Assembly (NCBI GenBank): GCA_028687755.1 | Contig: JAQTZL010000003.1 | Location: forward strand, 61,804-125,803 | DNA length: 64,000 bases | Direction: 5' to 3' | DNA from: Candidatus Nanopelagicales bacterium | GTDB taxonomy: Bacteria > Actinomycetota > Actinomycetes > S36-B12 | Part shown: positions 10,543 through 60,577 of the stretch, in pieces | How positions within the stretch are numbered: the first letter of the stretch is position 1 | Layout of the letters: each line of letters begins with the position of its first letter | Made by a program: the position numbers and the translations under genes | The notes under the pieces: generated by a model | Databases searched by the model: none | What the model was told of the DNA's origin: nothing | What the model saw: only the letters and a program-made list of their open reading frames with translations

Positions 10543-11021
10543 AGCCCACCCGTATTCGCCTGCTGCTCATCATTACTGTCATCGGTGCCTTGGTGGGATT
10601 TGTTCTCGCAAGTGTGATGAACGGCCAAGTTGGCCGCGCGGTACCCGTGCCGTTTCTGGCTGCCCTCACCCTCTGGATACTTGCGCTCGCACTCTTCATT
10701 TGGGCCTACTTGGCAAAGCCACGCCTGCAGCGTGCTCCGGGTTCAGTGCCGTTGGCGCCCATCGTGGCGGCCCGCACCGCAGCACTCGCGATGGCTGCAT
10801 CAAGAACTGGTGCTCTTGTTGCCGGTTTCTATATTGGTCTTGGCGTTGGCACGCTGCCCGATCTGGCTACCCCAGCAGGAACGTCAACGGTGTGGTCGGC
10901 GGGGGCAGCGGCGCTTGGAGCAATCGCGCTTGTAGCCGCGGCGCTATGGCTAGAACATCTGTGTCGATTGCCGGCAGAGGGTGACTCGGATGGATCAGGG
11001 CTAGATAAGGTCAGTCCATGA
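10539..11021 (+). CDS. DUF3180-like integral membrane protein
   Basis: Four predicted TM helices. It occupies the slot directly after folK, which a DUF3180 membrane protein also occupies in other actinobacteria. ATGA overlap with folK. Confidence 0.7.
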   Translation: MKPTRIRLLLIITVIGALVGFVLASVMNGQVGRAVPVPFLAALTLWILALALFIWAYLAKPRLQRAPGSVPLAPIVAARTAALAMAASRTGALVAGFYIGLGVGTLPDLATPAGTSTVWSAGAAALGAIALVAAALWLEHLCRLPAEGDSDGSGLDKVSP

Positions 11022-11305
11022 GCACCGAACCAGTCCTTGAAGACCTTCCATTCGAAGAATTGCGCCATCAGGCCTTTCACCTGGCTGAAAAGCATCTTGA
11101 TTTGGGTTTCTTCACTGATGTGTTCAGCCACATGCCCAGCATGAACGCAATCGAGGGCGAAGGCGGAGACTTAGGGGCTGTTGGTGGAACATTCATCGAC
11201 ACAGTTCGTGCCGTTCGTGAGATGTTTGGTGAAACAGAACTCGATGACACCACCGAAAGCTTGCTGCGCGCACGCTTTGCTACCTACATTCGCGAGCGTT
11301 CGTAA
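11018..11305 (+). CDS. Hypothetical acidic 95-aa protein, last gene of the fol-linked coupled chain
   Basis: ATGA-coupled to the preceding gene. No family recognised by eye. No TM segment or signal peptide. Confidence 0.5.
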   Translation: MSTEPVLEDLPFEELRHQAFHLAEKHLDLGFFTDVFSHMPSMNAIEGEGGDLGAVGGTFIDTVRAVREMFGETELDDTTESLLRARFATYIRERS

Positions 11306-12421
11306 TTAGCGGTCGGCGTCGCCGACCATAAACGTGCACGATTGCAACATGGGCACTAACGCATCCATTGGAAGCCCAACAAGAGTGCTCGTCAAGCTCT
11401 GAATTGTTGCGAATGCTGGCGTACGTAATTTCAAACGCCACGGTGTTTTTTCGCCGATACTGTCGAGCAAAATCCCGATAGTTCCAAGTGGACCTTCAAT
11501 CGCGCCATAAATCGTAAGTTCTGGTGCGCGGACCACCTTAGGAAGTTGAACTGAGGTGGGTCCGTCACCTGCTGCAAGAAGCCACTGGATTGCCTCGTCC
11601 ATGATGCTCAAGCTTGCGAGTAAGTGTTCAGCAATCAACGTAAAGCGCGATGGGATATCGCCAGATCCGTGAGCTATCGGAAAACAATGAGGGACGTGTT
11701 CGTAAGCAAGATAGGGAGTTGTGATGCGTAAATCATTCGCAACCCCACTGCTCCAAGCTATCGATCCAGAAAGCCCATATTCGTGTATTTGTTCTGGAGT
11801 GATAACTCCAATGCCTTCCAACTGCGCAAAGCGATCGCCTATTTTCTGAGGTAAATCATGAAGATCCGTCTGAAGTTCCTTGATGACTGGCGAGAGTAAA
11901 TTGAGCCATTCAGGGAAGCAGGGAGTGGCAATGCCACCGATGCGCACAAACATTGGGTGAATGCGTGATCCAGTGAGTTCTTCGAGAAGCGCTAGAAAGG
12001 TTTCCCGGTGTGCCATGAGCTGGGAAAATTTTGGATCAGTCGTGCCAAGCATGATCAAACTCGCAGTTACGCGATTCATTTCGGCGAGTAACATTCGAGA
12101 CCAGGTTGCACGTTCCGGAGTCAGTATTCCCATTGCATCTTCAAGAACAAGTGCGATGGCCAGTTCTGAACTCATGGCGCTGAGCCAGTCATGGCGATTC
12201 GCCAACATCATCAGTTGTCGGTAGTCGCGGGCTTCGAAGAGTTTTTCGGCACTGCGATGAACAAAGCCGATCCGCGGATCTGCTGAAGTGATGATGGATT
12301 CGTTTGTGTGCAAGGCCAATTGCATAGCGCCTTGCCCAGTGGGATGGAGTTCCCCGAGATCAAGATGGAAATCAGCCGGCAGATTTCGCGCCGCACCTAT
12401 TGCAACTAAGACCTCGTTCAC
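11306..12421 (-). CDS. NuoD/NDUFS2 (complex I 49-kDa subunit) paralogue, orphan, outside the nuo operon
   Basis: It aligns without gaps against the NuoD in this window at both ends. Near the N-terminus, LGELHPTGQGAMQL matches [25 protein letters not shown] matches [11 protein letters not shown], and NRHDWLS matches TRMDYLA. At the C-terminus, EGPLGTIG...TPWRLKLRTPAFATIQ...MVGDADR matches EAPRGELG...[16 protein letters not shown]...VMGGVDR. The [NiFe]-hydrogenase CxxC pairs are absent. Confidence 0.8.
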   Translation of the reverse strand: MNEVLVAIGAARNLPADFHLDLGELHPTGQGAMQLALHTNESIITSADPRIGFVHRSAEKLFEARDYRQLMMLANRHDWLSAMSSELAIALVLEDAMGILTPERATWSRMLLAEMNRVTASLIMLGTTDPKFSQLMAHRETFLALLEELTGSRIHPMFVRIGGIATPCFPEWLNLLSPVIKELQTDLHDLPQKIGDRFAQLEGIGVITPEQIHEYGLSGSIAWSSGVANDLRITTPYLAYEHVPHCFPIAHGSGDIPSRFTLIAEHLLASLSIMDEAIQWLLAAGDGPTSVQLPKVVRAPELTIYGAIEGPLGTIGILLDSIGEKTPWRLKLRTPAFATIQSLTSTLVGLPMDALVPMLQSCTFMVGDADR

Positions 12422-13329
12422 GGTGTCATCTTCGCAGGTTGAGGAAATTCAATTGCATACGCAGCAATAAGCCACCAGAAATCAGGAGTAGGGCCGTCTT
12501 GAAGCATGGTGATGTGTGGTGTTCCTGATGAAGCGTCAGCAAGAGCATCGAGAGCAACATGTGCAGTGATGTTCATTTCCCCAGTCGCCTGCGGTGTAAG
12601 TGTTTGCCCAGCGCGGTAACCCGTAAGTGTGCCGCCATCCCACACTCCTCGAATTCGATCGGCCCGCATGTGCGCGTAATCAATGGCTATGGCAAAGCCT
12701 GACGAGACGAGCGCTGTGAGGTCACGCCAACAAGCATCGCGAGTTATTCCAATTTCGCACCGCATGAATGGGCGAGTAGTCGGCCACCACTTCTTTAACC
12801 ATTCATATTCTGGGCTTGTCGTATCTAAGGCCGCGCCAAGTGTGGGTGTGAAATGCGTGTGATCAGCAACCATGATGTGCGCCACTCCATCGCTACCTAC
12901 TTCTGCCATTGCGCAGGGGAGGTCATCGAGGAATTCATGTGCCACCAACACAGTGTGTCCCGCAGGAATCTGGATGATGGTTTCCCTGACATCACCCTCA
13001 ATCCAGTCGATAGCTGCCGAGAGATGTGCCGGTCGCGGTCTGACATCAAGACAGATAAGGGTCGTGCGTTCGCGCTCTGCAGGTGTAAGCAAATCTGAAA
13101 TGTGCTCCGCCAATAATCCGGTTCCAGCGCCAACATCAATGAACCTGAGAGGCCCTTGGAGCAGGGCGGTGCGCACATAGGGCAGCAGGTCGGTAGCCAA
13201 TGTGGATTGTTGAACGCTGGTGGTGAAGTGGTCATAGGGCAGGGAATGGGAGTAGAAGCCACGATCACCGGTCGCGGCCTTTGCCCAGGCCAGATCCCAA
13301 GCGAGATCTTCGGGAATTTTGGCCACCAC
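12418..13329 (-). CDS. MidA/NDUFAF7-family class I SAM-dependent methyltransferase
   Basis: Family-typical blocks appear in order: DHFTTS (DFxTSPE-like), FIDVGAGTGLLAEHI (SAM motif I), LVAHEFLDDLP (ANEFFDALP-like), AIAIDYAH (DYG-like), GTLTGYRAGQ and GEMNITAHVALDAL (DxTAHVDF-like). Its stop overlaps the GTG start of the NuoD paralogue (GTGA). Confidence 0.75.
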   Translation of the reverse strand: MVAKIPEDLAWDLAWAKAATGDRGFYSHSLPYDHFTTSVQQSTLATDLLPYVRTALLQGPLRFIDVGAGTGLLAEHISDLLTPAERERTTLICLDVRPRPAHLSAAIDWIEGDVRETIIQIPAGHTVLVAHEFLDDLPCAMAEVGSDGVAHIMVADHTHFTPTLGAALDTTSPEYEWLKKWWPTTRPFMRCEIGITRDACWRDLTALVSSGFAIAIDYAHMRADRIRGVWDGGTLTGYRAGQTLTPQATGEMNITAHVALDALADASSGTPHITMLQDGPTPDFWWLIAAYAIEFPQPAKMTP

Positions 13330-13365: not shown

Positions 13366-14253
13366 GTGATGGCTCCTCCCCGCCTCCGTGTCGGTGTCAT
13401 TGGCACCGGTCGAGCGGGTTCCGTGATTGGCGCGGCCCTGCATCGTGTTGGTCATGAAGTGGTGGCTGTTGCCGCTGTTTCTGAACTCTCACGCCTTCGA
13501 GCTCAAGCGCTTTTGCCGGGTGTCCCTATCGTTGATATTGATCAGGTGGTTGCGGCCTGTGATTTGGTGCTGGTCGCAGTTCCCGACGATGCGCTAGCTG
13601 GGTTACTCGAAGGTCTTGCTGCGAGCCAATCAGTGAAGCCAGGTCAGTTCTGGGTGCACTTGAGTGGTCGTTATGGCACTGACGTGATGGCGCCAGTAGC
13701 TGCGCTTGGGGCCCTGCCGCTAGCTATCCATCCGGTGATGTCTTTTACCGGAACAAGCATGGATCTCCAACGCCTCGAAGAGTGCCCGTTTGGAGTGACG
13801 GCGCCTGATGAATTGCGAAGTGCTGCCGAAGCGCTCGTCATTGAGATCGGCGGCGATCCCATTTGGGTGCCAGAAGAGAAGCGAGTGCTGTATCACGCAG
13901 CTTTGGCGTTCGGCTCCAATTACCTCATCACCCTGGTAGCCCAAAGTGCCGAGTTGTTGTCGCGGGCCGGCATCGAAGAACCGCGTCGTGTTCTTGCTCC
14001 ACTGTTGAGTGCGAGTTTGGATAACGCGTTGCGACTGGGCGACCAAGCATTGACCGGGCCAGTGGCGCGAGGTGACGCGGCGAGCGTCAAGGCACATCTT
14101 GCTGTGCTTACTGAGCAATCCGAGCTCGCAGGTTCAAGTTACCGAGTACTGGCCCGCGTAACTGCAGATCGAGCAGTTGATGCTGGGTTACTGTCTACAG
14201 CGCATGCAGAGGCACTCTTGGGTGTGCTGAGTGAAGAAGGGGAATCGACATGA
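13366..14253 (+). CDS. Rossmann-fold, DUF2520-type putative oxidoreductase (panC-associated)
   Basis: N-terminal GVIGTGRAGS dinucleotide-binding motif and C-terminal ...LTGPVARGD... block. ATGA-coupled to panC, the usual actinobacterial position for this family. Confidence 0.7.
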   Translation: MMAPPRLRVGVIGTGRAGSVIGAALHRVGHEVVAVAAVSELSRLRAQALLPGVPIVDIDQVVAACDLVLVAVPDDALAGLLEGLAASQSVKPGQFWVHLSGRYGTDVMAPVAALGALPLAIHPVMSFTGTSMDLQRLEECPFGVTAPDELRSAAEALVIEIGGDPIWVPEEKRVLYHAALAFGSNYLITLVAQSAELLSRAGIEEPRRVLAPLLSASLDNALRLGDQALTGPVARGDAASVKAHLAVLTEQSELAGSSYRVLARVTADRAVDAGLLSTAHAEALLGVLSEEGEST

Positions 14254-47332: not shown

Positions 47333-47767
47333 ATGTCAAAAGCACCTAATCGGTGGCTCACAGCAGTGATGTACACCGCAGCACGCTTACTGCTCTGGTT
47401 GGTCATCTGGGCGCTGCTTCAGTTCCTCACACCGGTGAAGGGCCTACTTGCAGTCGTATTGAGCCTGCTGATCTCAAGCGCCATAAGCATCATCATGCTC
47501 GATCGTCAACGTGATGTGATGAGTGAAGGTGTTGGTGCGTTCTTTGGTGGAATCAATCAAAAAATTGCAAACTCAGCGGCTGCAGAAGATGCCTGGCAGG
47601 AGGAAATTCGCGCAGCACAATCAGGTCCAGGCCAGCAAAGCGCCGCAAGTCAGGCCGTAGATCAAGATCAACAAGCCACTTTGCTTGAGGGGAATGATCA
47701 ACGCGGGACCGACAGCGCCACTGATAACAATCCGCACGGGTTGGATAGCGAAAACAAAACTGAGTAA
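47333..47767 (+). CDS. DUF4229-like small membrane protein with a disordered acidic/Q-rich tail
   Basis: Two TM helices followed by MLDRQRD, typical of DUF4229. The last 147 nt overlap the 3' end of convergent menA. Confidence 0.55.
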   Translation: MSKAPNRWLTAVMYTAARLLLWLVIWALLQFLTPVKGLLAVVLSLLISSAISIIMLDRQRDVMSEGVGAFFGGINQKIANSAAAEDAWQEEIRAAQSGPGQQSAASQAVDQDQQATLLEGNDQRGTDSATDNNPHGLDSENKTE

Positions 47768-48496
47768 GCCAAGTAGTAGCCACCAAGTGGTGAGTGCTGC
47801 AAGCTCAACCGTGAGTGCAAAGGCAAGTGCGACAAAGACGACATAGAGAATTCGTGTTCCGCGATCTCCAAGTCTCACCGCCAACGTGTGTTTTCCAGCT
47901 TGAGTATCCGTTGGAATATCGCGCAAGTTGTTCACCACTAAAAGAGTGCAGATCAGTAAGCCAATTGCACATGCCGCAGCGACATCAGCTGCGTTCACCT
48001 TGAGGGTTTGGACGTACACGGTGCCGATGACGGGTACGAGACCAAAAAAGATGAAAACAAAAACTTCACCTAAACCTATGTACCCATATGGGCGCTGGCC
48101 ACCTGTGTAGAACCATGCTGCCGCGATGCAAGCAACGCCAACCAGAATGAGCCACCACTGTGATGTCATGAGCACTAGACCAAGGCCAGCAACCATCGCG
48201 ACGAAATAGCAAAGGAATGCTGCGAGTTTGACCTGCTTTGGCTCTGCGAGTTTCTGGCCGACGAGTCGCACTGGACCGACTCGCACCTCATCAGTGCCCT
48301 TGATGCCGTCGCTGTAGTCGTTTGAGAAATTCACACCGACCTGGAGGGCGAGTGCCACGATGAGCGCAAGCGCCACTCGGCTGAGCATGAAACTATCGAG
48401 GCGAGCAGCAAGGCCAGCTCCGATAGCAACAGGTGCAATTGCAGAAGGAAGGGTTCGAGGGCGTGAGCCACCAACCCATTGGCTCAGCGTTGCCAT
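47621..48496 (-). CDS. menA: 1,4-dihydroxy-2-naphthoate polyprenyltransferase
   Basis: UbiA-family polytopic protein with NDYSDGIKGTD (NDxxD) and a second D-rich loop NNLRDIPTD. Confidence 0.9.
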   Translation of the reverse strand: MATLSQWVGGSRPRTLPSAIAPVAIGAGLAARLDSFMLSRVALALIVALALQVGVNFSNDYSDGIKGTDEVRVGPVRLVGQKLAEPKQVKLAAFLCYFVAMVAGLGLVLMTSQWWLILVGVACIAAAWFYTGGQRPYGYIGLGEVFVFIFFGLVPVIGTVYVQTLKVNAADVAAACAIGLLICTLLVVNNLRDIPTDTQAGKHTLAVRLGDRGTRILYVVFVALAFALTVELAALTTWWLLLGLLSFVFAIQPVRIVISGAVGPALIIPLKQSGLLILIYGLTCGALLAWT

Positions 48497-49707
48497 ATTG
48501 CTCCGTCATGTGTGAGTTGAGTGACTGCTCGTCGATCGATCTTGTTATTGGGAAGTGTTGGTAGCGAATCAACAAAAGCAAAATTGCGAGGCACAGCTGC
48601 TTTTCCGAGTGCAGTGTGAAGTGAAGTGCGCAAAATTTGCGCAAGTTCAGATTGATCGACTAATGAATCCTCAAGAGTGATCGCTGCGTAGAGTTCAAAT
48701 TCACCATCGTTAGATGGTTGAGCGACTACGGCTGCAAGTTGCACACCTGCGAAGTTATTGATCACTTCTTCAACAGCATTAAGCGAAACATTGATGCCAT
48801 TAATCGTGATCACATCATCGCTGCGTCCGTCAATCACGAGCATGTTCTCGTAAGAACCTAAATCGCCAGTTCGATAACTTCGACCAAAGAATCGTTCAGC
48901 CGTCTGTTCTGGTTGGTTTCGGTATCCCAACGCAACCATGTCGCCAGTCAACACGATTTCGCTATTGAGCGGATCAATACTGATGCCAACGCCCGGCAGA
49001 GGTTGTGAGTTATAGACACACCCGCCGGCAGTTTCTGTTGCGCCGTATGTAGTGGTGAGGCTGACACCTGCTGCTCGGGCTGCTTGAGCCGTGGAAGCGG
49101 GGAGTGGCCCGCCACCAACAAGAATCTGAGCGCAGGATCGCAAGGCTTCTGTGCCTTCAGCTTCGCTCAACAACCGTCGAACTTGGGCCGCAACCAACGA
49201 GACACGAACATCGGGCGAGTGCTGCAAAGCAATGCGAACAGTTGCAGAGAATTCTTCTGAGGTGAATGGATTGAGCCCACCCAAACTCGAAAGTCCCAAC
49301 GCTGGCAGATCAGTTTCGGCAGCTCGCAGCACCACATTGAAACCACCCATTGACGTAATTGGCAGTGCTGCAATCCATTGAGGATTCGCATCGCCCTGGA
49401 TTGCCTTCGAAAGAGCGTGCAAGGTCGCAGCACTATGAAGGACGCCCTTGGGATGCTGCGTGGATCCTGACGTGGCCAGCACGACGGCGATCTCATCAGA
49501 TTCCAGAGGGATCGATTCATCGTCAGGTCTTGTCGCGGTCACGAGTTGGCTGACGTACTGAGGTGAAGTAGCTGGGGTAACCGTTGGAATGGGAGCGATA
49601 GCTGGGCCTGTGCCGTCTAAGGCAGTGCGTAGTGCCTCAGTGAGCACGCTCACGCCCTCAGCGCCCGGGGGGACCGAGAGGTGGAGGAGGGGTCGGGCAG
49701 GCATCAC
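48484..49707 (-). CDS. menE: o-succinylbenzoate--CoA ligase
   Basis: AMP-binding motif [13 protein letters not shown], plus YGATE and YRTGD. It sits in the men cluster. Confidence 0.8.
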
Positions 49708-49737
49708 TGCAAGCGTAGTCGCGATAGCGTTTCACTC

Positions 49738-50670
49738 ATGGATACCCGTACGCGTTACACCTTGCCTCCCGTTGTTGCTGCTGATTCACCGGCAAAGTCA
49801 GATCCGGGGTACTCATCAGCCCTTCCTGCGTGCGTGTGGGAATCACAAGGTGAGTTTGGAGATATCAAATATGAAATCTCCACGGGAGATGCTGCTGGCA
49901 TCGCGAAGATCACGATTAACCGTCCGGAAAAACGAAATGCCTTCCGTCCACAAACCATCATCGAGTTGATCGACGCGTTTTCTCGTGCCCGAGATGACGG
50001 TCGCGTTGGCGTCATCATCTTGTGTGGCCAAGGAGACCTCGCCTTTTGTTCAGGTGGCGATCAGATCATTCGTGGCGACGATGGGTATATCGGCGATGAT
50101 GCTGTTGCTCAAGCTGGCGTTGGTCGTCTGAATGTGTTGGATCTTCAGATTTTGATTCGTCGTATTCCAAAGCCAGTAATTGCCATGGTGGCTGGTTATT
50201 CGATGGGTGGCGGACATGTGCTGCACGTGGTGTGCGACATGACTGTTGCTGCTGAGAATGCGCGCTTTGGTCAAACAGGCCCACGGGTTGGTTCATTCGA
50301 CGGTGGATATGGCTCGGGTCTGCTGGCTCGCATCATTGGTCAAAAGCGTGCCCGCGAAATTTGGTACCTGTGCCGTCAATACGGCGCAGAGCAGGCCTAT
50401 GACTGGGGCTTGGTCAACGAAGTCGTACCACTGAAGGACCTTGAAGTTGCAACCGTTGATATTGCACGCGAGATGTTGCAGTTGTCGCCTTTGGCTTTGC
50501 GTATGTTGAAGGCATCACATAACGCAGCTGACGATGGCCTTGCAGGAATTCAGCAGCTCGCGGGCGACGCCACCTTGTTGTTCTACATGAGCGAAGAAGC
50601 CCAAGAGGGTCGCGATGCTTACAAGGAAAAGCGCACTCCTGACTTCTCGAAGTTCCCTAAGCGTCCGTGA
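49738..50670 (+). CDS. menB: 1,4-dihydroxy-2-naphthoyl-CoA synthase
   Basis: Crotonase fold with [25 protein letters not shown] and C-terminal [20 protein letters not shown] 49738 was chosen over the ORF-track start 49681. Confidence 0.95.
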
Positions 50671-51689
50671 CGTTACCCGGCGCGCTTCTCCAAGGCGTCA
50701 CACCGTTTGCGATCACGTTGCATCGCGAATTTCGTGGTGTGACGTCGCGCGAAGGTGTCGTGATTCACGGTCCATCTGGATGGGGAGAATTCGCTCCATT
50801 TGAGGATTACGGAAATGAATACGCCGGCCGTTGGCTGGCCACCGCTTTAGAAGCTGCTTTTGGTGATTGGCCAACGAGCAAGCGTGAATTCATTGCAGTC
50901 AACGCAATCATTCCCGGAGTTACAGGTGAAGTCGCTGCTCAGCTTGTTCGTGATGTCGTGGGCACTGATGGCTGTTCAACAATCAAAGTAAAGGTGACGG
51001 GCGATCTTGCCAGCGATGAGGCGCGAGTTGCGGCCGTGCGTCAAACCCTGGATGAAGTGCTTGGCCTGGGCGTTGGCCAGATCCGCATTGATGCAAATGC
51101 TTGTTGGAGCGTTACGCAAGCAATTGACGCAATCCAGTGCCTATCTGCCTACTCGCTTGAATATGTAGAGCAACCAGTTGAACACAATGATGAATTGCGT
51201 GAAGTGCGCAGTGCCATTGATGTACCGATAGCTGTCGATGAATCCATTCGCAAAGATAAGAATCTCGATGCGCGGGCTTTGAAAGAATTACGGGAACTTG
51301 CCGATGTCGCGATCATCAAACCTGCACCTGTGGGCGGAGTTCATCGTGGCGTAGAAATCGCTGAACTGCTCAATATGCCGATCGTGGTCAGTAATGGCAT
51401 GGAATCGTCAATCGGTTTATGTACATCCCTTGCGTTAGCGGGAGCCCTGGATATTGATCGTGCTTGCGGTTTGGGTACTGGGAAATTGATTGCTCAGGAT
51501 CTGATTGCCGCACCGTTGGTGTCTCGCGGCGGAAACATGAAAGTGCAGCGTTTGGCGCCGGATGCTCATTCGTTGGCGGCCGCCCGTGCTCGGATAACTG
51601 AAGATCAGGCACAGTTCTGGCTTAAGCGTCTTGAGCAGGCATGGCACTCCGAAGCGGTCGCCCCATGGCATGAAAAGGTGGGAATGTGA
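50667..51689 (+). CDS. menC: o-succinylbenzoate synthase (enolase superfamily)
   Basis: TIKVKV..., [15 protein letters not shown] and AVDES metal/acid-base blocks. GTGA overlap with menB. Confidence 0.82.
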
Positions 51690-53476
51690 ACCCAAGTACA
51701 GCGTTAGCGCGAGTCATTGTTGATGAACTTCTTCGATGTGGCATCACTGATGTAGTACTCGCGCCCGGTTCGAGGTCTGCTGGCTTGGCGATTGCGCTTG
51801 CTGCCGCTGAAAGCCGCGGTGAATTAACGCTGCACGTGCGAGTTGATGAGCGATCCGCTGGCTTCTTAGCGTTGGGTCTTGGCAAGCTAAGTGGAGTACC
51901 TGCTGTTGTTGTCACTACTTCCGGCACTTCAGTTGCCAACCTGTTGCCGGCAATCATTGAGGCGGACTACTCAAATGTTCCCCTGTTGGCGTTGACTGCC
52001 GATCGACCTAGCGCACTTCGAGGGATTGGCGCGAATCAAACCATCAATCAGGTTGGAATTTTTGGTGGCAGTGTGCGCGATGCGATTGATCTTGCCGCAC
52101 CAGCCTCGGCGCATAACGACGACGATCAAGTTGCCCAGAATCGGGTGTGGCGATCAACGGTGGCCCGTGCAGTTGCTGCGACTACTGATGTCATGCGTGC
52201 AGGCCCAGTACATCTCAATGTGCAATTTGCTGAACCGCTCGTGCCAACAGATGAGTTGACTCCTGAAGAACAACTTGAAGTGATGCAGAGTGGTCCATTT
52301 GCCGGTCGACCAGATGGCCGCCCTTGGGTAGCCGATGCACGCCTGCTTGGCGGCATGAGTGTGCCTATTGATGAAGTCTTTGAAATGTTGCTTGATGACG
52401 CAACAATTCCAGAGCGAGGCTTGATTGTTGTGGGTGATCAAGCTGATGGTGAAGTGACTGATCTCGTTGATGAGTTGGGTGACGCCCTTGGTTGGCCGAT
52501 CATCGGTGAACCAAGCGGCAACGTCGCTGCATGTGACACCACGCTCGCGCACGGTGCGTTGATTCTCGCCAATGGTGAGTTTGCTGATGCGCATGTTCCA
52601 GATGTTGTGATCACGCTTGGTCGCATTGGGCTGAGTCGTGCAGTGCAAGGTCATATTGCTCGTGCAAAATTCCATATTGCTGTGGATGCGCAACCTCAAT
52701 GGAATGACTCCGCGCGTACAGCCGACGTTGTTGTGGCTTCGTGTCCGCTGCCACCAAGTGAGGGTGAGATTGGCAGCGATTGGCTGGAGTCGTGGCAGCG
52801 TGCTGATCTTCTCGCCGCTGTTGCGATTGAAACTGTGCTCGCTGGCGAGATTGCAAGTCTCACCGGAATGCATGTCGCTCGTGCTTGTGGGCAAGCGGTT
52901 CCTGAAGATGGTGTGTTCTTTGTTGGGCCTTCATGGCCGGTACGCCATGTTTACAATTTCGCTGCAAATGCATCTGGCAGTGCAGTGACGTTAGGTAATC
53001 GTGGCACTTCAGGCATTGATGGTTGTGTTTCAACTGCATGGGGTGCTGCAGTTGCGGCGCAGCGTGACAGTCAAGCCTCATGCATTGCATTACTTGGCGA
53101 TTTAACATTCTTGTACGACATCAATGGCTTGCGAGTTCCTTCAGTTGAGGCGCAACCAAATCTTGTCTACGTCATTAGCGACAACAACGGCGGCGGAATC
53201 TTCTCGCAGCTTGAACAAGGTGCACCGAAATTTGCTAGCTCGTTTGATCGAGTATTTGGCACGCCTCTTGATGCTGATATTGCGGCGACTGTGCAAGCTT
53301 TGGGTATCCCATGCATTGTTGTGACGAGTGTGGAAGAGCTCAATGTGGCGCTGACAAGATCAATAGCGGCTGGTGGGGTTGAGGTAATTGTTGCGCGAAC
53401 ATGTTCGCGTGAAAATGAAGCCGACGCGTTGAAAACAGTCAATGATGCAATCGAGCAAGCTCTCGCAACTGCTTAG
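51686..53476 (+). CDS. menD: 2-succinyl-5-enolpyruvyl-6-hydroxy-3-cyclohexene-1-carboxylate (SEPHCHC) synthase
   Basis: ThDP enzyme with APGSRSAGLA, TTSGTSVANL, LTADRP and GDLTFLYDINGL...DNNGGGIF. GTGA overlap with menC. Confidence 0.92.
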   Translation: MNPSTALARVIVDELLRCGITDVVLAPGSRSAGLAIALAAAESRGELTLHVRVDERSAGFLALGLGKLSGVPAVVVTTSGTSVANLLPAIIEADYSNVPLLALTADRPSALRGIGANQTINQVGIFGGSVRDAIDLAAPASAHNDDDQVAQNRVWRSTVARAVAATTDVMRAGPVHLNVQFAEPLVPTDELTPEEQLEVMQSGPFAGRPDGRPWVADARLLGGMSVPIDEVFEMLLDDATIPERGLIVVGDQADGEVTDLVDELGDALGWPIIGEPSGNVAACDTTLAHGALILANGEFADAHVPDVVITLGRIGLSRAVQGHIARAKFHIAVDAQPQWNDSARTADVVVASCPLPPSEGEIGSDWLESWQRADLLAAVAIETVLAGEIASLTGMHVARACGQAVPEDGVFFVGPSWPVRHVYNFAANASGSAVTLGNRGTSGIDGCVSTAWGAAVAAQRDSQASCIALLGDLTFLYDINGLRVPSVEAQPNLVYVISDNNGGGIFSQLEQGAPKFASSFDRVFGTPLDADIAATVQALGIPCIVVTSVEELNVALTRSIAAGGVEVIVARTCSRENEADALKTVNDAIEQALATA

Positions 53477-54759
53477 TTCTGTGTGAGTGCTTCGCGAATC
53501 GGTACGAGTTTGGCATTTGATTCCGCTAGCTCTTGGGTGGAATCTGATCCAGCGACAATCCCGCACCCGGCAAAGGCTCTGATTGTTCCAGCGTCTTGGT
53601 TAATTTCTGCACATCGCAAGGCGATGCCAAATTCACCATCACCGTGAGCATCAATCCAACCAACTGGCCCTGCATAACGCCCTCGATCCATGCCTTCGAG
53701 TTCGCGAATAGTGGCAAGTGCGCGCTCCGTCGGCGTTCCGCAGACCGCAGCTGTTGGATGCAAGAGCGCAGCAAGAGCAAGCACTGGTACATCGTCAGCG
53801 AGGCGACCAGTCACATCGGTTGCAAGATGTTGCACATTGGCAAGTTGCAACACATGTGGTTGATCAGGAACATCGAGGTCCGTGCAGTGCGCAGCAAGGG
53901 AGCGTGCGACCGAACGCACGGCATATTCATGTTCAGCAAGATCTTTTTCGGATGCAAGCAGCGCCTGCGCCATGTTTGCATCCACTTTCGCGTCGCCTTG
54001 GCTACGCACGGTTCCTGCAAGAACTCGGCTGGTAACGAGATCACCAGTTCGACGCACCAACAGTTCAGGTGTTGCACCTATGAGTCCGGAAACATTGAAC
54101 GTCCAGCACGATGGATACGAAGTTGCTAATGCGCTCAATACGCTTCGCGCATCAATGCTTCCTTCAACTTGGCCAATGATGTCGCGTGCAAGCACAACTT
54201 TATCGAGCTCGTTGTGGTTGATGCGGGTGATTGCCTCTTCAACGGCAAGCTTCCAGTTCGTTGAAGTTTGACTGCCATCAGTCCATTGCACATTGACCGG
54301 AGCCTTAGGAATGCTGACTGCGCGCAATTCATGGCGTGGATCGCCGTCGGTTCCAATTGTGGTGATCCACGATTGTCCGTTCTTGCGCCCAATGAGAACG
54401 CGCGGCACGATGATGATTGATCGGCCTGGTTCTGGATCGAAAGCAAATGAGGCAAATGCAACTGGACCAGTGCCGGGGATGGACACAGTGTCGTCAATTG
54501 CGGCTTGAGCGCAGAAATTGGACCACCAGCGCTGTGCGCGACTAAAACGTTCAGCACCGCTGACTTCAAGGCTGGCAGCGATTCCCCAGCCAACCATGCC
54601 CTCGCCATTGCGCACCCAACTGACTGCGTCACCGGAAGGAAGGAGGGCTAGCAAGTTGCCTGGATCATCAAGGTGGCGAGTGCGAACCTGAATGGGCGCA
54701 CCGATGCGCACGATGTTGCGCCCGGCTTGTTTGGCGAGCTCAATACTTGGGTCAGGCAC
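53473..54759 (-). CDS. menF: Isochorismate synthase
   Basis: Chorismate-binding core with LHPTAAVCGTP, GMDRGRYAGPVGW and AGCGIVAGSD. Confidence 0.88.
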   Translation of the reverse strand: MPDPSIELAKQAGRNIVRIGAPIQVRTRHLDDPGNLLALLPSGDAVSWVRNGEGMVGWGIAASLEVSGAERFSRAQRWWSNFCAQAAIDDTVSIPGTGPVAFASFAFDPEPGRSIIIVPRVLIGRKNGQSWITTIGTDGDPRHELRAVSIPKAPVNVQWTDGSQTSTNWKLAVEEAITRINHNELDKVVLARDIIGQVEGSIDARSVLSALATSYPSCWTFNVSGLIGATPELLVRRTGDLVTSRVLAGTVRSQGDAKVDANMAQALLASEKDLAEHEYAVRSVARSLAAHCTDLDVPDQPHVLQLANVQHLATDVTGRLADDVPVLALAALLHPTAAVCGTPTERALATIRELEGMDRGRYAGPVGWIDAHGDGEFGIALRCAEINQDAGTIRAFAGCGIVAGSDSTQELAESNAKLVPIREALTQN

Positions 54760-54809
54760 ATACCTAGCCTAGATGTGCGCAAGACTGGCCGCGGTGCAAG
54801 GATGCTTGC

Positions 54810-55502
54810 GTGACTCGTGCTGACTTATCCAAAGATCCTTCTGCAGTTGCGGCCATGTTCGATGGGGTTGCTGAGCGCTATGACCTCGCAAATGATGTGT
54901 TGGCCTTAGGTCAAACCCGCATCTGGCGCCGAGCGGTCCTCCAAGCGGTCAAACCTCAACCGGGCGAAATGATTTTGGACCTTGCTGCCGGTACCGGCAC
55001 TTCTAGTGTGCCGTTTGCTAAGGCTGGGGCAACCGTGATTCCCACCGATTTTTCCCTAGGAATGCTGCGAGTCGGCCATGAGCGCCAGCCTGAGCTGCCA
55101 TTTGTGGCTGGAGACGGACTAAACCTCCCATATCGTGACAAATCCTTCGATGCGGCCACAATTTCCTTCGGTTTACGCAATCTGGCCGACCGAGCCCGCG
55201 GATTGGCTGAATTTCGCAGGGTGCTCAAGCCTGGTGGGCGTTTAGTGATCTGTGAGTTCTCCCATCCCACCTTCAAGCCGTTTCGCACGGTGTACACCGA
55301 ATATCTGATGAAAGCCCTCCCGGCTGTCGCAACCAAAGTTGCGACCAATCCAGATGCGTACGTGTATTTGGCAGAGTCAATCCGAGCCTGGCCCGATCAA
55401 GCTGACCTAGGGCAAGAGCTCACCGATGCAGGGTTTGGCCAGGTCCAGTGGCGCAACCTTTCCGGAGGCATCGTGGCTGTCCACCGAGCAGTGAACCCGT
55501 AG
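54810..55502 (+). CDS. menG: Demethylmenaquinone methyltransferase
   Basis: UbiE/MenG blocks [32 protein letters not shown] and [13 protein letters not shown]. Confidence 0.9.
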
Positions 55503-55601: not shown

Positions 55602-55961
55602 GTGAACGTATATACGCCGATCCTCGTATTGGGTCTGCTCGCATTTGGTTTCGCTGTGTTCTCAGCAGTGATCGCACCCATTACTGGCCCCAAGCGTTAC
55701 AACCGCGCCAAGGTGGATGCCTACGAATGTGGCATCGAGCCAACTCCGCAACCCGTGGGTGGCGGACGTTTCCCGGTGAAGTACTACCTCACCGCAATGC
55801 TCTTCATCGTGTTTGACATTGAAATCGTCTTTTTGTATCCGTGGGCAGTTGCCTTCGATCGCATGGCTGTTTTCGGCTTGATCGAAATGGGGCTGTTCAT
55901 CGTCACCGTCCTCGTCGTCTACGCATACGTGTGGCGTCGTCGTGGACTCGAGTGGGATTAA
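55602..55961 (+). CDS. nuoA: NADH-quinone oxidoreductase subunit A
   Basis: Three TM helices with YECGIEP and FIVFDIEIVFLYPWA. SD AGGAG lies 6 nt upstream of the GTG. Confidence 0.95.
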   Translation: MNVYTPILVLGLLAFGFAVFSAVIAPITGPKRYNRAKVDAYECGIEPTPQPVGGGRFPVKYYLTAMLFIVFDIEIVFLYPWAVAFDRMAVFGLIEMGLFIVTVLVVYAYVWRRRGLEWD

Positions 55962-55973
55962 CCGGGAGTTCGC

Positions 55974-56528
55974 ATGGGTCTTGAAGAGAACCTGCCGTCT
56001 GGCGTCCTGTTGACGTCAGTTGAAAAGCTGGCTGGATACGCGCGTAAAGGGTCACTGTGGCCAGCAACCTTCGGTCTTGCCTGCTGCGCAATTGAGATGA
56101 TGGCCGTTGGCGGCCCACGTTTCGACATCGCACGTTTTGGCATGGAAGTGTTCCGTGCTTCACCACGTCAAGCCGATCTCATGATCGTTGCCGGCCGGGT
56201 GAGCCAGAAAATGGCCCCAGTGCTTCGTCAGATTTACGACCAAATGCCAAACCCAAAGTGGGTTCTAGCTATGGGCGTATGTTCGTCAAGCGGTGGCATG
56301 TTTAACAACTACGCAATCGTGCAAGGTGTTGATCACGTTGTTCCAGTCGACATCTACTTGCCTGGTTGCCCCCCTCGGCCTGAAATGTTGATCGATGCAA
56401 TCTTGAAATTGCACGATGAAATTCAAGACATGAAGCTCGGATCAAACCGTCGCGCACAAATGCGCGAGTTGGAAGCAGAAGCTCTCGTTGCGCCATCCAC
56501 TTCAGACATGAAGGGGCTCTTACGATGA
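55974..56528 (+). CDS. nuoB: NADH-quinone oxidoreductase subunit B
   Basis: N2 cluster ligands GLACCAIEM, ...GVCSSSGG... and LPGCPPRPE. Confidence 0.96.
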
Positions 56529-57235
56529 GTGACACTCCTGTAGTGCCAGTCGTTCCCGCTGGTGTGAGTCAGTTTGAAGTCTTCCATGTGCGCGAAGGCG
56601 CTTTCGGTGCATCAGGTTCCGGCGACACTAGCGGTTTTGGTGGACTCGTTGAACTCATGCACATGCCAGAAGCATCAGTTCGCCCGTTCGGTGGATGGTT
56701 TGATGAAGTTGCAGATGAACTCGAGCTCTCGTTGAAAGCTCGCAACATCAGTGCGGCAGATGCAATTGAAAAAGTTGTGATTTCCTTCAACGAAATCACC
56801 TTCTTCATTCGCCGCGCGCAACTTGTCACAGTGCTCTCAACCCTGCGTGATGAGCCAGGCCTGCGCTTCGAATTTTCAACAGGCGTCAGCGGCGTTCATT
56901 ACCCAGGCGACACTGGCCGCGAATTGCATGCGGTTTACCACCTAATGTCGATCACCCACAACCGCCGCGTCCGGGTTGAAGTGGTGACTCCTGATTCAGA
57001 TCGCCACATTCCTTCCTCAGTCAGCGTGTACCCAACCAATGACTGGCATGAGCGCGAAACCTTTGACTTCTTTGGCATCATCTTTGATGGCCATCCAGCA
57101 TTGACGCGCATTGAAATGCCAGATGATTGGCCAGGTCACCCACAGCGTAAGGACTACCCATTGGGTGGCATTCCAGTTGAATACAAGGGCGCAACTATTC
57201 CGCCACCAGATCAGCGGAGGTCGTACAACTCATGA
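56525..57235 (+). CDS. nuoC: NADH-quinone oxidoreductase subunit C
   Basis: The 30-kDa subunit block [27 protein letters not shown] overlap. Confidence 0.95.
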
Positions 57236-58593
57236 CCACAGATAACGTCACCTACACCAGTGCACCAGCGCAGGCCAACGATCCATATGCCAACCTCGGT
57301 GATTCCGAAGAGGGACGCATCTTCAACGTTGGCGGCGGCGACTGGGATTCAATCACTGTTGACCCCGATAGCGATTCAGAGCGCATCGTCATCAACATGG
57401 GTCCGCAGCACCCGTCAACTCACGGTGTGCTCCGTTTGATTCTTGAAATTGAAGGCGAGTACGTCACTGAAGCCCGCTGCGGCATTGGTTACCTACACAC
57501 CGGTATTGAAAAGAACATGGAGTTCCGTTCATTTACCCAAGGTGTTACGTACGCAACACGTATGGACTACCTAGCACCGTTCTTTAACGAAGCGGTGTAC
57601 TGCCTAGCAATTGAAAAGCTTCTTGGCATTACCGATCAAATTCCAGAACGTGCCAACGTCATTCGCGTGATGATGATGGAACTCAACCGAATTTCATCTC
57701 ACCTCGTGGCGCTTGCAACTGGTGGCATGGAGCTAGGTGCGCTCACCGCGATGGAATTTGGTTTCCGCGAACGCGAACTCATTCTCGACATTTTCGAAAT
57801 GATCACCGGCCTTCGCATGAACAATGCGTACATCCGTCCGGGCGGCGTTGCTCAGGATCTTCCTGCTGGCGCAGAAGAAAAGATTCGCGAAACTATTCCG
57901 CTACTTCGCAAGCGCTTGAAAGACACTGCTGATCTCTTAGTTGATAACAACATCTGGATGGGTCGCACCGTCGGCATCGGGTTCCTTGATCTCACCGGTT
58001 GTATGGCTCTTGGTGTTACTGGTCCAGTGCTTCGCGCGACTGGTTTCCCTCAAGACCTTCGTAAGTCTCAGCCTTACTGTGGCTATGAAAACTACGAGTT
58101 CGAAATCGTTACTGAAACCACTAACGATGCATACGGCCGCTTCCTCATTCGCATTCGCGAAATGGAGCAATCAATTCGCATCGTTGAGCAGGCACTTGAT
58201 CGCTTGCAGCCAGGTCCAGTGATGGTTGAAGACAAGAAGATTGCATGGCCAGCTCAGTTGTCTGTTGGCAGCGATGGCCAGGGCAACTCCCTTGAACACA
58301 TCCGCGAAATCATGTCGGAGTCAATGGAAGCGTTGATCCACCACTTCAAGTTGGTTACTGAAGGTTTCCGTGTTCCTGTTGGTCAGGTCTACACGGCGAT
58401 TGAAGCACCACGTGGAGAACTTGGATGTCACTTGGTGAGTGCTGGTGGCACTCGTCCATTCCGTGTGCACTTCCGCGATCCGTCATTCACGAATCTTCAG
58501 TCAGTTGCGGCTATGTGCGAAGGCGGTCAGATTGCTGACGTCATCGCAGCTGTTGCAAGCATCGATCCAGTTATGGGCGGAGTCGATCGCTAA
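57232..58593 (+). CDS. nuoD: NADH-quinone oxidoreductase subunit D (canonical)
   Basis: [32 protein letters not shown] and the C-terminal [11 protein letters not shown]. It sits in operon position between nuoC and nuoE. Confidence 0.97.
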
Positions 58594-58615
58594 CGCGGTC
58601 GAGAGGTGAGAGAAC

Positions 58616-59269
58616 ATGGCCATTAACGAGCAGACACTTGCGAGCATGCGCGAACTTGTCGCACGCTACCCACAGCCGCGCTCTGCGCTACTGCCAATGC
58701 TGCATCTTGTGCAAAGCGCCGAAGGTGAAGTCACGAGCGAGGGCATTGCTGCTTGTGCTGAGGTGCTTGGCATATCGCCTGCTGAAGTCACTGGAGTTTC
58801 AACGTTCTACACGATGTACAAGCGCAAGCCAGTTGGCGAACACCACATTGGTGTTTGCGTCAACACGTTGTGTGGCCTCCTTGGTGGCGATGCCGTGTAC
58901 GAAGCACTTTCTGAACGCCTTGGTGTTGGTCACAACGAACCGACTGCTGATGGCAAGTTCTCACTTGAGCGCATTGAATGTCAGGCAGCATGTACGCACG
59001 CGCCAGTTATGACCGTCGACTGGGAATTCATGGACGACGTCACACCAACATCGGCACTGGATGTTGTTGAGCGTTTATCGCGTGGCGAACGCGTTGAATC
59101 AACGCGCGGTCCAGTTATCCGTAACTTCCAAGCAACTGAGCACACTTTGGCGTTCCCTGACGACGGCCTTGCCGGAGAAGGTAGTTCGGTCGATGCCAAG
59201 ATGCTCGCAGGTTTGCGTTACGCAAAAGAACACAACATGGCGGCCCCTCGTTCCGGACAGGAGGGCTAA
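58616..59269 (+). CDS. nuoE: NADH-quinone oxidoreductase subunit E
   Basis: [2Fe-2S] ligands in ...HIGVCVNTLC... and ...ECQAACTHAP... Confidence 0.95.
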   Translation: MAINEQTLASMRELVARYPQPRSALLPMLHLVQSAEGEVTSEGIAACAEVLGISPAEVTGVSTFYTMYKRKPVGEHHIGVCVNTLCGLLGGDAVYEALSERLGVGHNEPTADGKFSLERIECQAACTHAPVMTVDWEFMDDVTPTSALDVVERLSRGERVESTRGPVIRNFQATEHTLAFPDDGLAGEGSSVDAKMLAGLRYAKEHNMAAPRSGQEG

Positions 59270-59272
59270 GTC

Positions 59273-60577
59273 ATGACTCTTACCCCCGTAATTACCGAGC
59301 ACTGGGATCAACCAGATCTCTACACGCTGGATGGATACAAGCGCGTTGGTGGATATGTCGCTCTTGAAAAGGCGTTGAAGCAAGATCCTGACGCAATTAT
59401 CAGCACTGTTAAGGATTCTGGCCTGCGTGGCCGCGGTGGCGCAGGTTTCCCTACGGGAATGAAGTGGAGCTTCGTTCCACAAAATGATGGCAAGCCTCAC
59501 TACCTCGTGGTGAACGCTGACGAGTCAGAGCCTGGTGCCTGCAAAGACATTCCCATCATGATGGCCAACCCGCACGCGTTGATCGAAGGCGTGATCATTA
59601 CGTCGTTTGCGATTCGCGCAAACCACGCCTTCATCTACATTCGCGGTGAGGTACCAAACGCTCTTCGTAAGGTGGCAAGTGCAGTTGCGGAAGCGCGACG
59701 TGCCGGGCTTGTGGGCAAGAACATCTTGGGTTCAGGATTTGACCTTGAAATCGTTGTGCATTCAGGTGCAGGTGCATATATCTGCGGTGAGGAAACTGCG
59801 CTCCTTGATTCACTCGAGGGTTTCCGCGGTCAACCGCGTTTGAAGCCACCGTTTCCTGCTGTCGCAGGTTTGTATGCATCACCAACAGTGATCAACAACG
59901 TTGAAACCATCTGCAATATCCCGTACATCATTGATCGCGGTGTTGATTGGTTCCGTTCATTTGGTACGGAGAAGTCACCGGGCTTCAAGGTGTGGGCAGT
60001 TTCCGGGCACGTGAACAACCCGGGCATCTTCGAAGCACCACTGGGCATCACGATGCGTCAGCTCTTGGAATATGCCGGCGGTGTCCGTGGTGGCGGAAAG
60101 GTGAAGTTCTGGCTTCCAGGCGGTTCATCGGTGCCTTTGCTTACTGAAGAACATCTTGATCTACCGATGACCTACGAAGAGATGGCTGCTGCCGGAACCA
60201 TGCTTGGCACCGGAACACCAATGATCTTCGACGAAACGGTCAGCGTCGTAAAGGCAGTTACTCGATGGCTTGAGTTCTATAAGCATGAGTCCTGCGGAAA
60301 GTGCACACCGTGCCGTGAAGGCACGTACTGGATCACCGGCATGCTGGAAAACTTCGAGCACGGTCACGCCAAGGAATCAGATCTCGAACTGCTGGTCAGT
60401 GCGTGTAACCAGATTTCTGGCCGTTCGTTCTGTGCGTTGGGTGATGCGGCAGCGACGCCGTTCCCAGCTGCACTCAAGTACTTCCGTGACGAATTTGTCG
60501 CGGCAACCAATTCACCGGTCGATGATGCATTCGATCCGGTGGCTTCCTACATCTACGCGGGAGCTGCAACCCGATGA
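59273..60577 (+). CDS. nuoF: NADH-quinone oxidoreductase subunit F
   Basis: FMN/NADH site GLRGRGGAGFPTG, CGEETALL and the N3 cluster ESCGKCTPCREG. Confidence 0.96.
   Translation: MTLTPVITEHWDQPDLYTLDGYKRVGGYVALEKALKQDPDAIISTVKDSGLRGRGGAGFPTGMKWSFVPQNDGKPHYLVVNADESEPGACKDIPIMMANPHALIEGVIITSFAIRANHAFIYIRGEVPNALRKVASAVAEARRAGLVGKNILGSGFDLEIVVHSGAGAYICGEETALLDSLEGFRGQPRLKPPFPAVAGLYASPTVINNVETICNIPYIIDRGVDWFRSFGTEKSPGFKVWAVSGHVNNPGIFEAPLGITMRQLLEYAGGVRGGGKVKFWLPGGSSVPLLTEEHLDLPMTYEEMAAAGTMLGTGTPMIFDETVSVVKAVTRWLEFYKHESCGKCTPCREGTYWITGMLENFEHGHAKESDLELLVSACNQISGRSFCALGDAAATPFPAALKYFRDEFVAATNSPVDDAFDPVASYIYAGAATR

Follow-up and report, generated by a model that had tools for sequence, protein, structure and literature searches.

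An orphan NuoD-like protein and its MidA-family methyltransferase neighbor: a candidate enzyme–substrate module in Candidatus Nanopelagicales and other Actinomycetota

Introduction

Methylation of an arginine of the subunit NDUFS2 by NDUFAF7 is essential for the assembly of human complex I. A stretch of 64,000 nucleotides from a Candidatus Nanopelagicales bacterium (Actinomycetota; GenBank assembly GCA_028687755.1, contig JAQTZL010000003.1, positions 61,804 to 125,803 of the forward strand; hereafter the window, in whose numbering positions are given) encodes, besides the canonical NuoD of a nuoA-N operon, a second NuoD-like protein (hereafter the paralogue) next to a methyltransferase of the MidA/NDUFAF7 family. 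What does a relative of NuoD do outside any nuo operon, and does the neighboring enzyme act on it? Our analysis gives an even chance to the reading that a dedicated MidA methyltransferase and a non-catalytic NuoD-like substrate form a two-gene module at 11306-13329 of the minus strand.

In mitochondria, NDUFAF7 dimethylates Arg85 of NDUFS2 early in complex I assembly (PMC3829151), and the arginine modification occurs in Paracoccus too (PMC8042128). In Yarrowia, Arg121 of NDUFS2 is needed for the stability of the iron–sulfur (Fe-S) cluster N2, whether methylated or not (Hameedi et al., 2021). Reviews place the origin of the MidA family in the alpha-proteobacteria. The initial annotation of the window described a reciprocal pattern, in which the paralogue keeps the arginine and has lost both quinone ligands, and the canonical NuoD does the opposite. 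The interval that it marked, 12185-12334, runs exactly from the codon of W79 to the codon of Q30 of the paralogue.

Results

The Proposed Acceptor Arginine and Its Column

The residues named in the initial annotation, Q30, R56 and W79 in the paralogue and H64, T90 and Y113 in the canonical NuoD, are exact by translation. In HMMER comparisons, the paralogue was aligned to Paracoccus NuoD (8qby_D; E = 2.6e-40) with no gap over the motifs HPxxHG, LHRGxEKL and DRLDY, and to Arabidopsis NDUFS2 (8bpx_D; E = 2e-39) equally without gaps over the three motifs. Because the alignment is gap-free, the proposed spacing of +26 and +49 residues holds, and the three columns are therefore homologous to those of bovine His59, Arg85 and Tyr108. 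They were steady in a MAFFT alignment of 120 homologues, in 80 genome loci and in an hmmalign alignment of the 150 best-scoring 50%-identity representatives from a HMMER scan of 1.84 billion cluster representatives; 97 of these 150 clusters belong to the orphan family. A shift of the arginine column, or its loss in orthologues, would have spoken against the annotation; every orthologue examined had R56 (118 of 118 homologues, 80 of 80 loci, 95 of 95 cluster representatives), and the position of the methyl acceptor is thus retained. The canonical NuoD carries Thr (T90) in this column and is not methylatable there, as had been claimed. It is the only other NuoD found in the 64-kb window, where no alternative NuoD target was seen.

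The paralogue matches the Pfam family Complex1_49kDa (126.9 bits against a cut-off of 24; E = 1e-36) and stays far below the NCBIfam equivalog cut-offs for NuoD (TIGR01962, 219.9/522; NF004739, 218.5/360; NF008974, 200.9/459); the canonical NuoD of the window passes (570 against 360). An AlphaFold2 (AF2) model of the paralogue, built from 32 family members, had a predicted local distance difference test score (pLDDT) of 89.7 and a predicted template modeling score (pTM) of 0.91, and Foldseek aligned it to NuoD/NDUFS2 chains of complex I with query-normalized TM-scores of 0.80–0.86. Within the model, pLDDT fell below 50 only in the last three residues and in the loop 53-57 (FVHRS), which includes R56; the low confidence fits an exposed, partner-dependent loop. 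Compared with the closest genome locus (L001), the ratio of nonsynonymous to synonymous substitution rates (dN/dS) was 0.11 for the paralogue; for the methyltransferase, again against its closest genome locus, it was 0.18. Purifying selection thus acts on both genes. At its N-terminus (residues 2-20, window 12362-12418), the paralogue has a motif LVAxGAARxLPxD, with G9, A11 and L14 nearly invariant and D17 invariant. Read by eye, the motif apparently has no counterpart in the canonical NuoD sequences examined, and it could be a family-specific interaction surface.

The Methyltransferase

The neighboring gene encodes a genuine MidA-family methyltransferase, as shown by its Pfam score, its orthologue profile and its predicted fold. 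It scored 62.9 bits against Methyltransf_28 (cut-off 23.3; E = 4e-17). The single sequence found no match in the PDB with phmmer; the orthologue profile matched the COG1565 structures 4f3n (4e-15) and 1zkd (1e-13) and Dictyostelium MidA 5ztz (5e-7). An AF2 model based on database homologues reached a pLDDT of 93.4, and its six best Foldseek matches were all MidA/COG1565 proteins (E of about 1e-13 to 1e-14), other methyltransferases scoring 1e-6 or weaker. The motifs DVGAGTG, AHEFLDDxP, IDYxH and ITAHV are conserved. With 303 residues against about 390–430 in other MidA proteins, the enzyme is approximately 90–130 residues shorter than the MidA proteins of solved structure. Its TGA stop codon and the GTG start codon of the paralogue share the four nucleotides GTGA, which suggests that the two genes are translationally coupled. 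One protein, P0102 (574 aa), was considered as a natural fusion and rejected: it has an over-called Arg-rich N-terminal extension and no domain fusion.

Linkage of the Two Genes

A scan from the side of the paralogue, with one genome per species, yielded 249 loci, of which 80 were kept; 6 of these were too short to judge and 74 were informative. A MidA homologue lay directly upstream on the same strand in 62 of the 74. Where methyltransferase loci with long flanks were available (Nonomuraea, Microbispora, Solihabitans and a marine Micrococcales metagenome-assembled genome, MAG), the paralogue was present within about 6 kb in four of four, in some of them with cytochrome P450, FAD-oxidase, TerC, DoxX or aminotransferase genes inserted between the pair. 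The link between methyltransferase and paralogue recurs across orders. In metagenome loci centered on the methyltransferase, collected with 11 closer methyltransferase sequences, the paralogue was adjacent in 33 and nearby in 13, and 17 were too short.

The arrangement folB-folK-DUF3180-p95, followed by the paralogue with or without the methyltransferase and then by DUF2520-panC-nadB, is syntenic across orders. The paralogue lies outside any nuo operon: every context examined shows it by itself, with the fol genes on one side and the pan/nad genes on the other, and in about 95 contexts no nuo gene, including a Thr-type NuoB, adjoins it. The neighborhoods in Cryptosporangium and Actinoplanes likewise held no nuo-like or Fe-S gene; P450, ABC-2 transporter and unknown genes were found there. 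A link to folate or pantothenate biosynthesis was considered and rejected, the paralogue being convergent or divergent to those operons; the relation is one of synteny only.

Several features of these neighborhoods are recorded here for their own sake. The p95 open reading frame (ORF; window 11018-11305, plus strand, 95 aa) has no Pfam or NCBIfam match and converges on the paralogue, its end lying 0 nt from the stop of the latter. Its place is behind DUF3180, where the folE-folP-folB-folK operon ends; it occupies this place in 73 of 80 loci and persists as genes of 93–99 aa in loci that lack the methyltransferase. On the other side, a Rossmann-like/DUF2520 gene (window 13366-14253, plus strand), presumably encoding a PanG-type ketopantoate reductase, immediately precedes panC and diverges from the methyltransferase gene; the DUF2520 gene, panC, nadB, nadC and coaX make up a cofactor-biosynthesis block. 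Just upstream of the NuoD-like gene and on the same strand, a PF00266 (Aminotran_5) gene was found in Microbispora (L162, 11190-13685; the gap between the two is 64 nt) and in Nonomuraea (L161, 12571-16013). PF00266 includes cysteine desulfurases, and this neighbor may reflect Fe-S chemistry or coincidence. In one MAG (L048, 4093-5829), matches to the methyltransferase are split over several frames on the opposite strand, and a second, partial NuoD-like ORF (minus strand) lies beside the intact paralogue; this could be a rearranged or pseudogenized duplicate, or an assembly artefact.

The Orphan Family and Its Quinone Pocket

Relatives of the paralogue number in the thousands, and the ORF is intact in hundreds of genomes, streamlined Nanopelagicales among them. 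In distance-based trees (neighbor joining on Kimura distances, 100–200 replicates), the orphan proteins were monophyletic in 200 of 200 bootstraps. They represent an old, monophyletic and Actinomycetota-wide family of orphan NuoD-related proteins, which databases label "NADH-quinone oxidoreductase subunit D" or, in the case of a Luteococcus member in UniRef, "subunit D-related protein". The less derived members, for example that of Cryptosporangium (L064), have a full loop and the His, are 36–38% identical to canonical NuoD, and are 83–98% identical to each other across Cryptosporangium, Actinoplanes, Dactylosporangium and Phytomonospora; the paralogue of the window is 44% identical to the Cryptosporangium orthologue.

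The ligands of the quinone headgroup are a Tyr (Thermus Y87) and a His (H38), together with the partner of the latter, D139, and with D401. The paralogue is without this set: it has W79, Q30, a shortened loop and T363. Among the 120 best matches, R56 and W79 were invariant, and position 30 was His in 99 and Gln in 20; W79 is invariant throughout the family, as is the motif ANRHDW. At the level of clusters, position 30 was His in 51 of 84 (absent in 39%), being otherwise A, Q, T, P, N, D, M or S, and a tree of 81 sequences indicated that the His was replaced at least five independent times. The D401 column held Asp in 0 of 79 family members, whereas 38 of 44 canonical NuoD representatives have it. 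In Thermus numbering, R350 is changed to Leu and P402 to Phe or Leu, and the loop T135-F146 is shorter by 3–7 residues in Nanopelagicales members, including the paralogue of the window. Retained were R76 (96 of 97 clusters) and H155 (94 of 96), the latter column being Asn in the canonical NuoD of the window. Upon the verified Thermus numbering, we take R76 to correspond to Yarrowia R141 and H155 to Yarrowia H226. The family has about 50 invariant positions.

Judged by these residues, the signature of the family is Arg, Trp, His155 and a hydrophobic C-terminal loop, and not the loss of both ligands. The initial claim of a double loss therefore stands for the paralogue of the window (Q30 and W79) and falls for the family, which mostly keeps the His; Gln30 arose late, in this lineage, as the quinone pocket progressively decayed. 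The family keeps the face that looks at cluster N2 in complex I, namely R56, R76, H155 and the C-terminal GDxDR, and these invariant residues hint at an Fe-S partner. Since Trp and Arg are invariant, the His is replaced in approximately 40% of clusters and no member has Asp at the D401 equivalent, there is good support for a loss of quinone chemistry, and the paralogue is unlikely to reduce quinone, in agreement with the initial annotation; the shortened loop points the same way.

The Canonical NuoD and the Arg/Thr Switch

The canonical NuoD matched M. smegmatis NuoD (8e9g_D) with E = 1.1e-215 and 720 bits over 425 residues, and its motif GYLHTG is common to that protein and to Thermus Nqo4 (2fug_4). 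In Thermus, Arg83 of Nqo6 (NuoB) fills the space of the NDUFS2 arginine, and NDUFS7 of Yarrowia has Thr there (Hameedi et al., 2021). A gap-free HMMER alignment of NuoB placed R75 of the window at this switch position (Thermus, MIVAGRLSKKMAP; Yarrowia, MIVAGTLTNKMAP), which is Arg in the window, Thermus and M. smegmatis, and Thr in Yarrowia and Aquifex. The resident complex I is thus, by its residues, of the ordinary NuoD-Thr/NuoB-Arg type, the same type as Thermus Nqo4/Nqo6 and M. smegmatis NuoD/NuoB. Consequently, the reciprocal pattern cannot be read as a specialization between the two paralogues, as had been proposed: Thr in NuoD is the usual Thermus/Mycobacterium state, offset by R75 of NuoB. 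The switch explains the Thr of the canonical protein but not the paralogue, whose mitochondrial-type Arg would be mismatched with the resident NuoB. If the paralogue docked canonically on this NuoB, the side chains of two Arg residues would claim the same place, which argues against a simple subunit swap.

As a further observation, menaquinone-biosynthesis-like ORFs, judged by position and length, occupy 47624-55502, just upstream of the 14-subunit nuo operon (55602-63998); by the same standard, a 230-aa ORF at 54810-55502 resembles a UbiE/MenG-type methyltransferase.

A Second Setting: the Heliorhodopsin-Linked nuo Operon

Among proteins outside the family, the representative search scored P0443/P0521 highest; it is the NuoD of a heliorhodopsin-linked nuoABCDHIJKLMN operon. 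Such an 11-subunit operon, with an NDUFAF7 homologue behind it, has been described in Ca. Actinomarina (Bulzu et al., 2021). We found a 317-aa Methyltransf_28 gene directly after nuoN (L171, 18385-19338). Like the orphan family, the NuoD of this operon has Arg in the Arg85 column and Trp in the Tyr108 column (H-R-W type; GYMHRGYEK, NRIDW), and a short MidA-family gene is present. Unlike the orphan of the window, it is part of a full nuo operon with a Thr-type NuoB (MIVAGTVTDKMAP at the switch position) and keeps the His, the full loop and the D401 equivalent; its MidA gene follows nuoN and encodes a protein 23% identical to the methyltransferase of the window.

In Actinomycetota, a MidA gene is thus found with an Arg-type (and Trp-type) NuoD homologue in two genomic settings that are unrelated to each other, and the pairing in the second, non-syntenic one strengthens the functional link. 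The minimum distance to the orphans was 0.89 for this NuoD, against 1.02–1.23 for the other four non-family sequences compared, and it grouped with the orphan family in only 40% of bootstraps. It is plausible that the ancestor of the orphan module was the Arg/Trp-type NuoD of a nuo complex of 11 subunits, with a MidA of its own.

Two further observations concern these proteins. In L170 (5959-8197) and L171 (8344-19338), the MidA gene, HtpX, rhodanese and PfkB follow nuoN, and it may be asked which electron acceptor a complete complex with a Trp-type NuoD uses. Another protein, P0469 (500 aa), matches the profile of the paralogue family over residues 140-500 only and has Trp at the Tyr column (TDRMDWL), yet keeps the His, the Arg and the D401 equivalent; it is possibly a NuoC-NuoD-type fusion.

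Table 1. Genes and codons of the window discussed in the text.
Feature	Position	Strand	Remarks
Orphan NuoD-like paralogue	11306..12421	minus	371 aa, GTG start, ORF
Paralogue C-terminus SCTFMVGDADR + stop	11306..11341	minus	T363/F364 in place of Thermus D401/P402 (quinone chamber)
H155 codon	11957..11959	minus	= Thermus H169; family signature R-[VIM]-H-P
W79 codon (NRHDWL)	12185..12187	minus	column of NDUFS2 Tyr108 / Thermus Nqo4 Y87
R76 codon	12194..12196	minus	= Thermus R84; retained N2-facing Arg
R56 codon (GFVHRSAEK)	12254..12256	minus	column of NDUFS2 Arg85 / Thermus Nqo4 T64; proposed methyl acceptor
Q30 codon (LHPTGQGAM)	12332..12334	minus	column of NDUFS2 His59 / Thermus Nqo4 H38
MidA/NDUFAF7-family S-adenosylmethionine-dependent methyltransferase	12418..13329	minus	303 aa; Pfam Methyltransf_28
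Canonical NuoB	55974..56528	plus	R75 (codon 56196-56198) = Thermus Nqo6 R83
Canonical NuoD of nuoA-N operon	57232..58593	plus	H64, T90 (GYLHTGIEK; codon 57499-57501), Y113 (RMDY)

Discussion

According to the reading that we favor, the methyltransferase would bind the free paralogue and methylate R56 in the flexible HRSAEK loop, by analogy with the action of NDUFAF7 on Arg85 of NDUFS2 before NDUFS7 docks. The modified paralogue would then have a non-catalytic role and serve an Fe-S (NuoB-type) protein as its partner, chaperone or regulator. It probably does not replace NuoD in the resident 14-subunit complex, because R75 of the resident NuoB would occupy the same space. The parallel with NDUFAF7 and NDUFS2 extends to the methyltransferase family (Methyltransf_28, MidA fold), the NuoD/NDUFS2 fold and the Arg column of HRGxEK. 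The systems differ in that the partner here is an orphan paralogue, which never has the Tyr and in this lineage lacks the His, in that the two genes share one operon, and in that the methyltransferase is shorter by about 100 residues and the methylation putative. A more specific proposal is that the orphan derives from a core subunit and, by virtue of its methylarginine, assists the assembly or the regulation of the Fe-S (NuoB/N2) module of complex I or of a related complex, its MidA partner being a dedicated protein-arginine methyltransferase of Actinomycetota; it is tentative, and we think it unlikely.

A number of observations weigh against this reading. In 12 of the 74 informative loci the flanks were ample and held no methyltransferase (absence being defined within the flanks seen), the paralogue adjoining the divergent DUF2520-panC-nadB genes instead. 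These loci represent at least three separate clades, all keeping Arg and Trp, in one of which HRSAEK has become NRSVEK. Five further contexts of the paralogue, including a complete Luteococcus chromosome, had no methyltransferase within 7–8 kb. The initial annotation had named the same paralogue in genomes lacking MidA as a finding that would count against it, and in these 12 loci and five contexts, none with MidA nearby, this was found in part. Because the Arg is kept with no methyltransferase nearby, its conservation must have a reason beyond methylation. In 17 metagenome loci centered on the methyltransferase, no paralogue was found in the 0.6–4 kb available downstream, and no Fe-S partner is encoded near the paralogue. 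Furthermore, the Trp-type NuoD of the 11-subunit operon belongs to a complete membrane complex, so that Trp alone is no proof of a non-catalytic role. In favor of the reading, the linkage is asymmetric: the methyltransferase is almost always found with the paralogue, and the paralogue is often found without the methyltransferase. Such asymmetry is expected if the enzyme depends on the paralogue but the core function of the paralogue does not depend on the enzyme. With the Arg invariant also where the methyltransferase is missing, its primary role is independent of methylation, and methylation would come on top of it to modulate function or to help assembly, as in mitochondria.

It is possible, although unlikely, that the two genes are neighbors by inheritance only, the methyltransferase having another substrate or role and the Arg being kept for structural or Fe-S reasons. 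The Arg is also present in E. coli NuoCD. The interval from the fol to the pan/nad genes is deeply syntenic across orders, and part of the adjacency may therefore be inherited and not selected; the Arg is invariant in lineages with no methyltransferase nearby, and Arg121 of Yarrowia is needed for N2 irrespective of methylation. Moreover, the function of bacterial MidA proteins has only been inferred in the literature (PMC12455994). Inheritance alone accounts poorly, however, for the 4-nt overlap of the genes, for the presence of the paralogue in all long-flank methyltransferase loci despite insertions between the genes, and for the non-syntenic link of MidA with an Arg-type NuoD in the 11-subunit operon; the eukaryotic homologues are, in addition, a proven enzyme–substrate pair (PMC3829151). 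Another view, in which the paralogue has no function today and is the decaying remnant of a second nuo operon since lost, could draw on the progressive decay of the quinone site within the family and on its closest outgroup, the NuoD of the 11-subunit operon. We regard it as highly improbable, and conservation effectively refutes it: the dN/dS of 0.11, the ORFs intact even in streamlined Nanopelagicales, the roughly 50 invariant positions and the identity of 83–98% across Micromonosporales and Cryptosporangium genera are not those expected of a relic.

Subunit paralogues with roles other than that of the standard catalytic subunit are known, as in NDUFAF2, a paralogue of NDUFA12 that serves as an assembly factor of complex I; the likeness is one of concept, NDUFAF2 having no sequence relationship to the paralogue of the window. 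A likeness of the same kind is offered by C. elegans, which is reported to use NDUFS2 paralogues (gas-1/nduf-2.2) as alternative subunits (PMC11265314); these keep the catalytic residues, unlike the paralogue of the window. This precedent, the invariance of the N2-facing R56, R76 and H155, the Micromonosporales-type members with their full loop, their identity of 36–38% to canonical NuoD and their conservation across genera, and the H-R-W NuoD that is a regular subunit of the 11-subunit operon (the last being a further point against our preferred reading) would suit an alternative Q-module subunit that replaces NuoD under some conditions, with altered or blocked quinone chemistry and the methyltransferase as assembly factor. 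We nevertheless consider this improbable: the published overlap of the Thermus and Yarrowia structures would bring R75 of the resident NuoB and the Arg of the paralogue into one space, none of the about 95 contexts has a Thr-type NuoB or another nuo gene beside the paralogue, and this lineage has lost both the quinone loop and the His. The Nanopelagicales paralogue also evolves much faster than NuoD, as its 44% identity to the Cryptosporangium orthologue indicates when set against the 720 bits over 425 residues between the canonical NuoD and that of M. smegmatis. Improbable in much the same measure is that the short methyltransferase cannot do without the paralogue as a non-catalytic partner or adaptor, which would present another protein for methylation. 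The missing 90–130 residues of the enzyme, the translational coupling and the apparent dependence of the methyltransferase on the paralogue, and not the reverse, could be understood in this way, but the Arg of the acceptor position is strictly kept in the paralogue itself, and no conserved third protein lies nearby except p95, which persists without the methyltransferase.

Conclusion

A literature search retrieved no account in which an orphan NuoD-like protein and MidA form a pair in Actinobacteria; what has been published closest to it is the finding of an NDUFAF7 gene after the 11-subunit operon of Actinomarina (Bulzu et al., 2021). The label "NADH-quinone oxidoreductase subunit D" on a large orphan family inflates complex I calls in Actinomycetota. 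The presence of MidA tracks the switch between the NuoD-Arg/NuoB-Thr and NuoD-Thr/NuoB-Arg types, and the orphan may stem from an 11-subunit nuo complex. The pair would represent a compact two-gene bacterial version of NDUFAF7-NDUFS2, in which the presumed substrate is a separate, soluble-looking and non-respiratory protein. As the pair is present in the cultivable genera Actinoplanes, Dactylosporangium, Cryptosporangium, Microbispora, Nonomuraea and Solihabitans, it may be possible to study there, with respiration undisturbed, how the enzyme works and what the methylarginine would be for.

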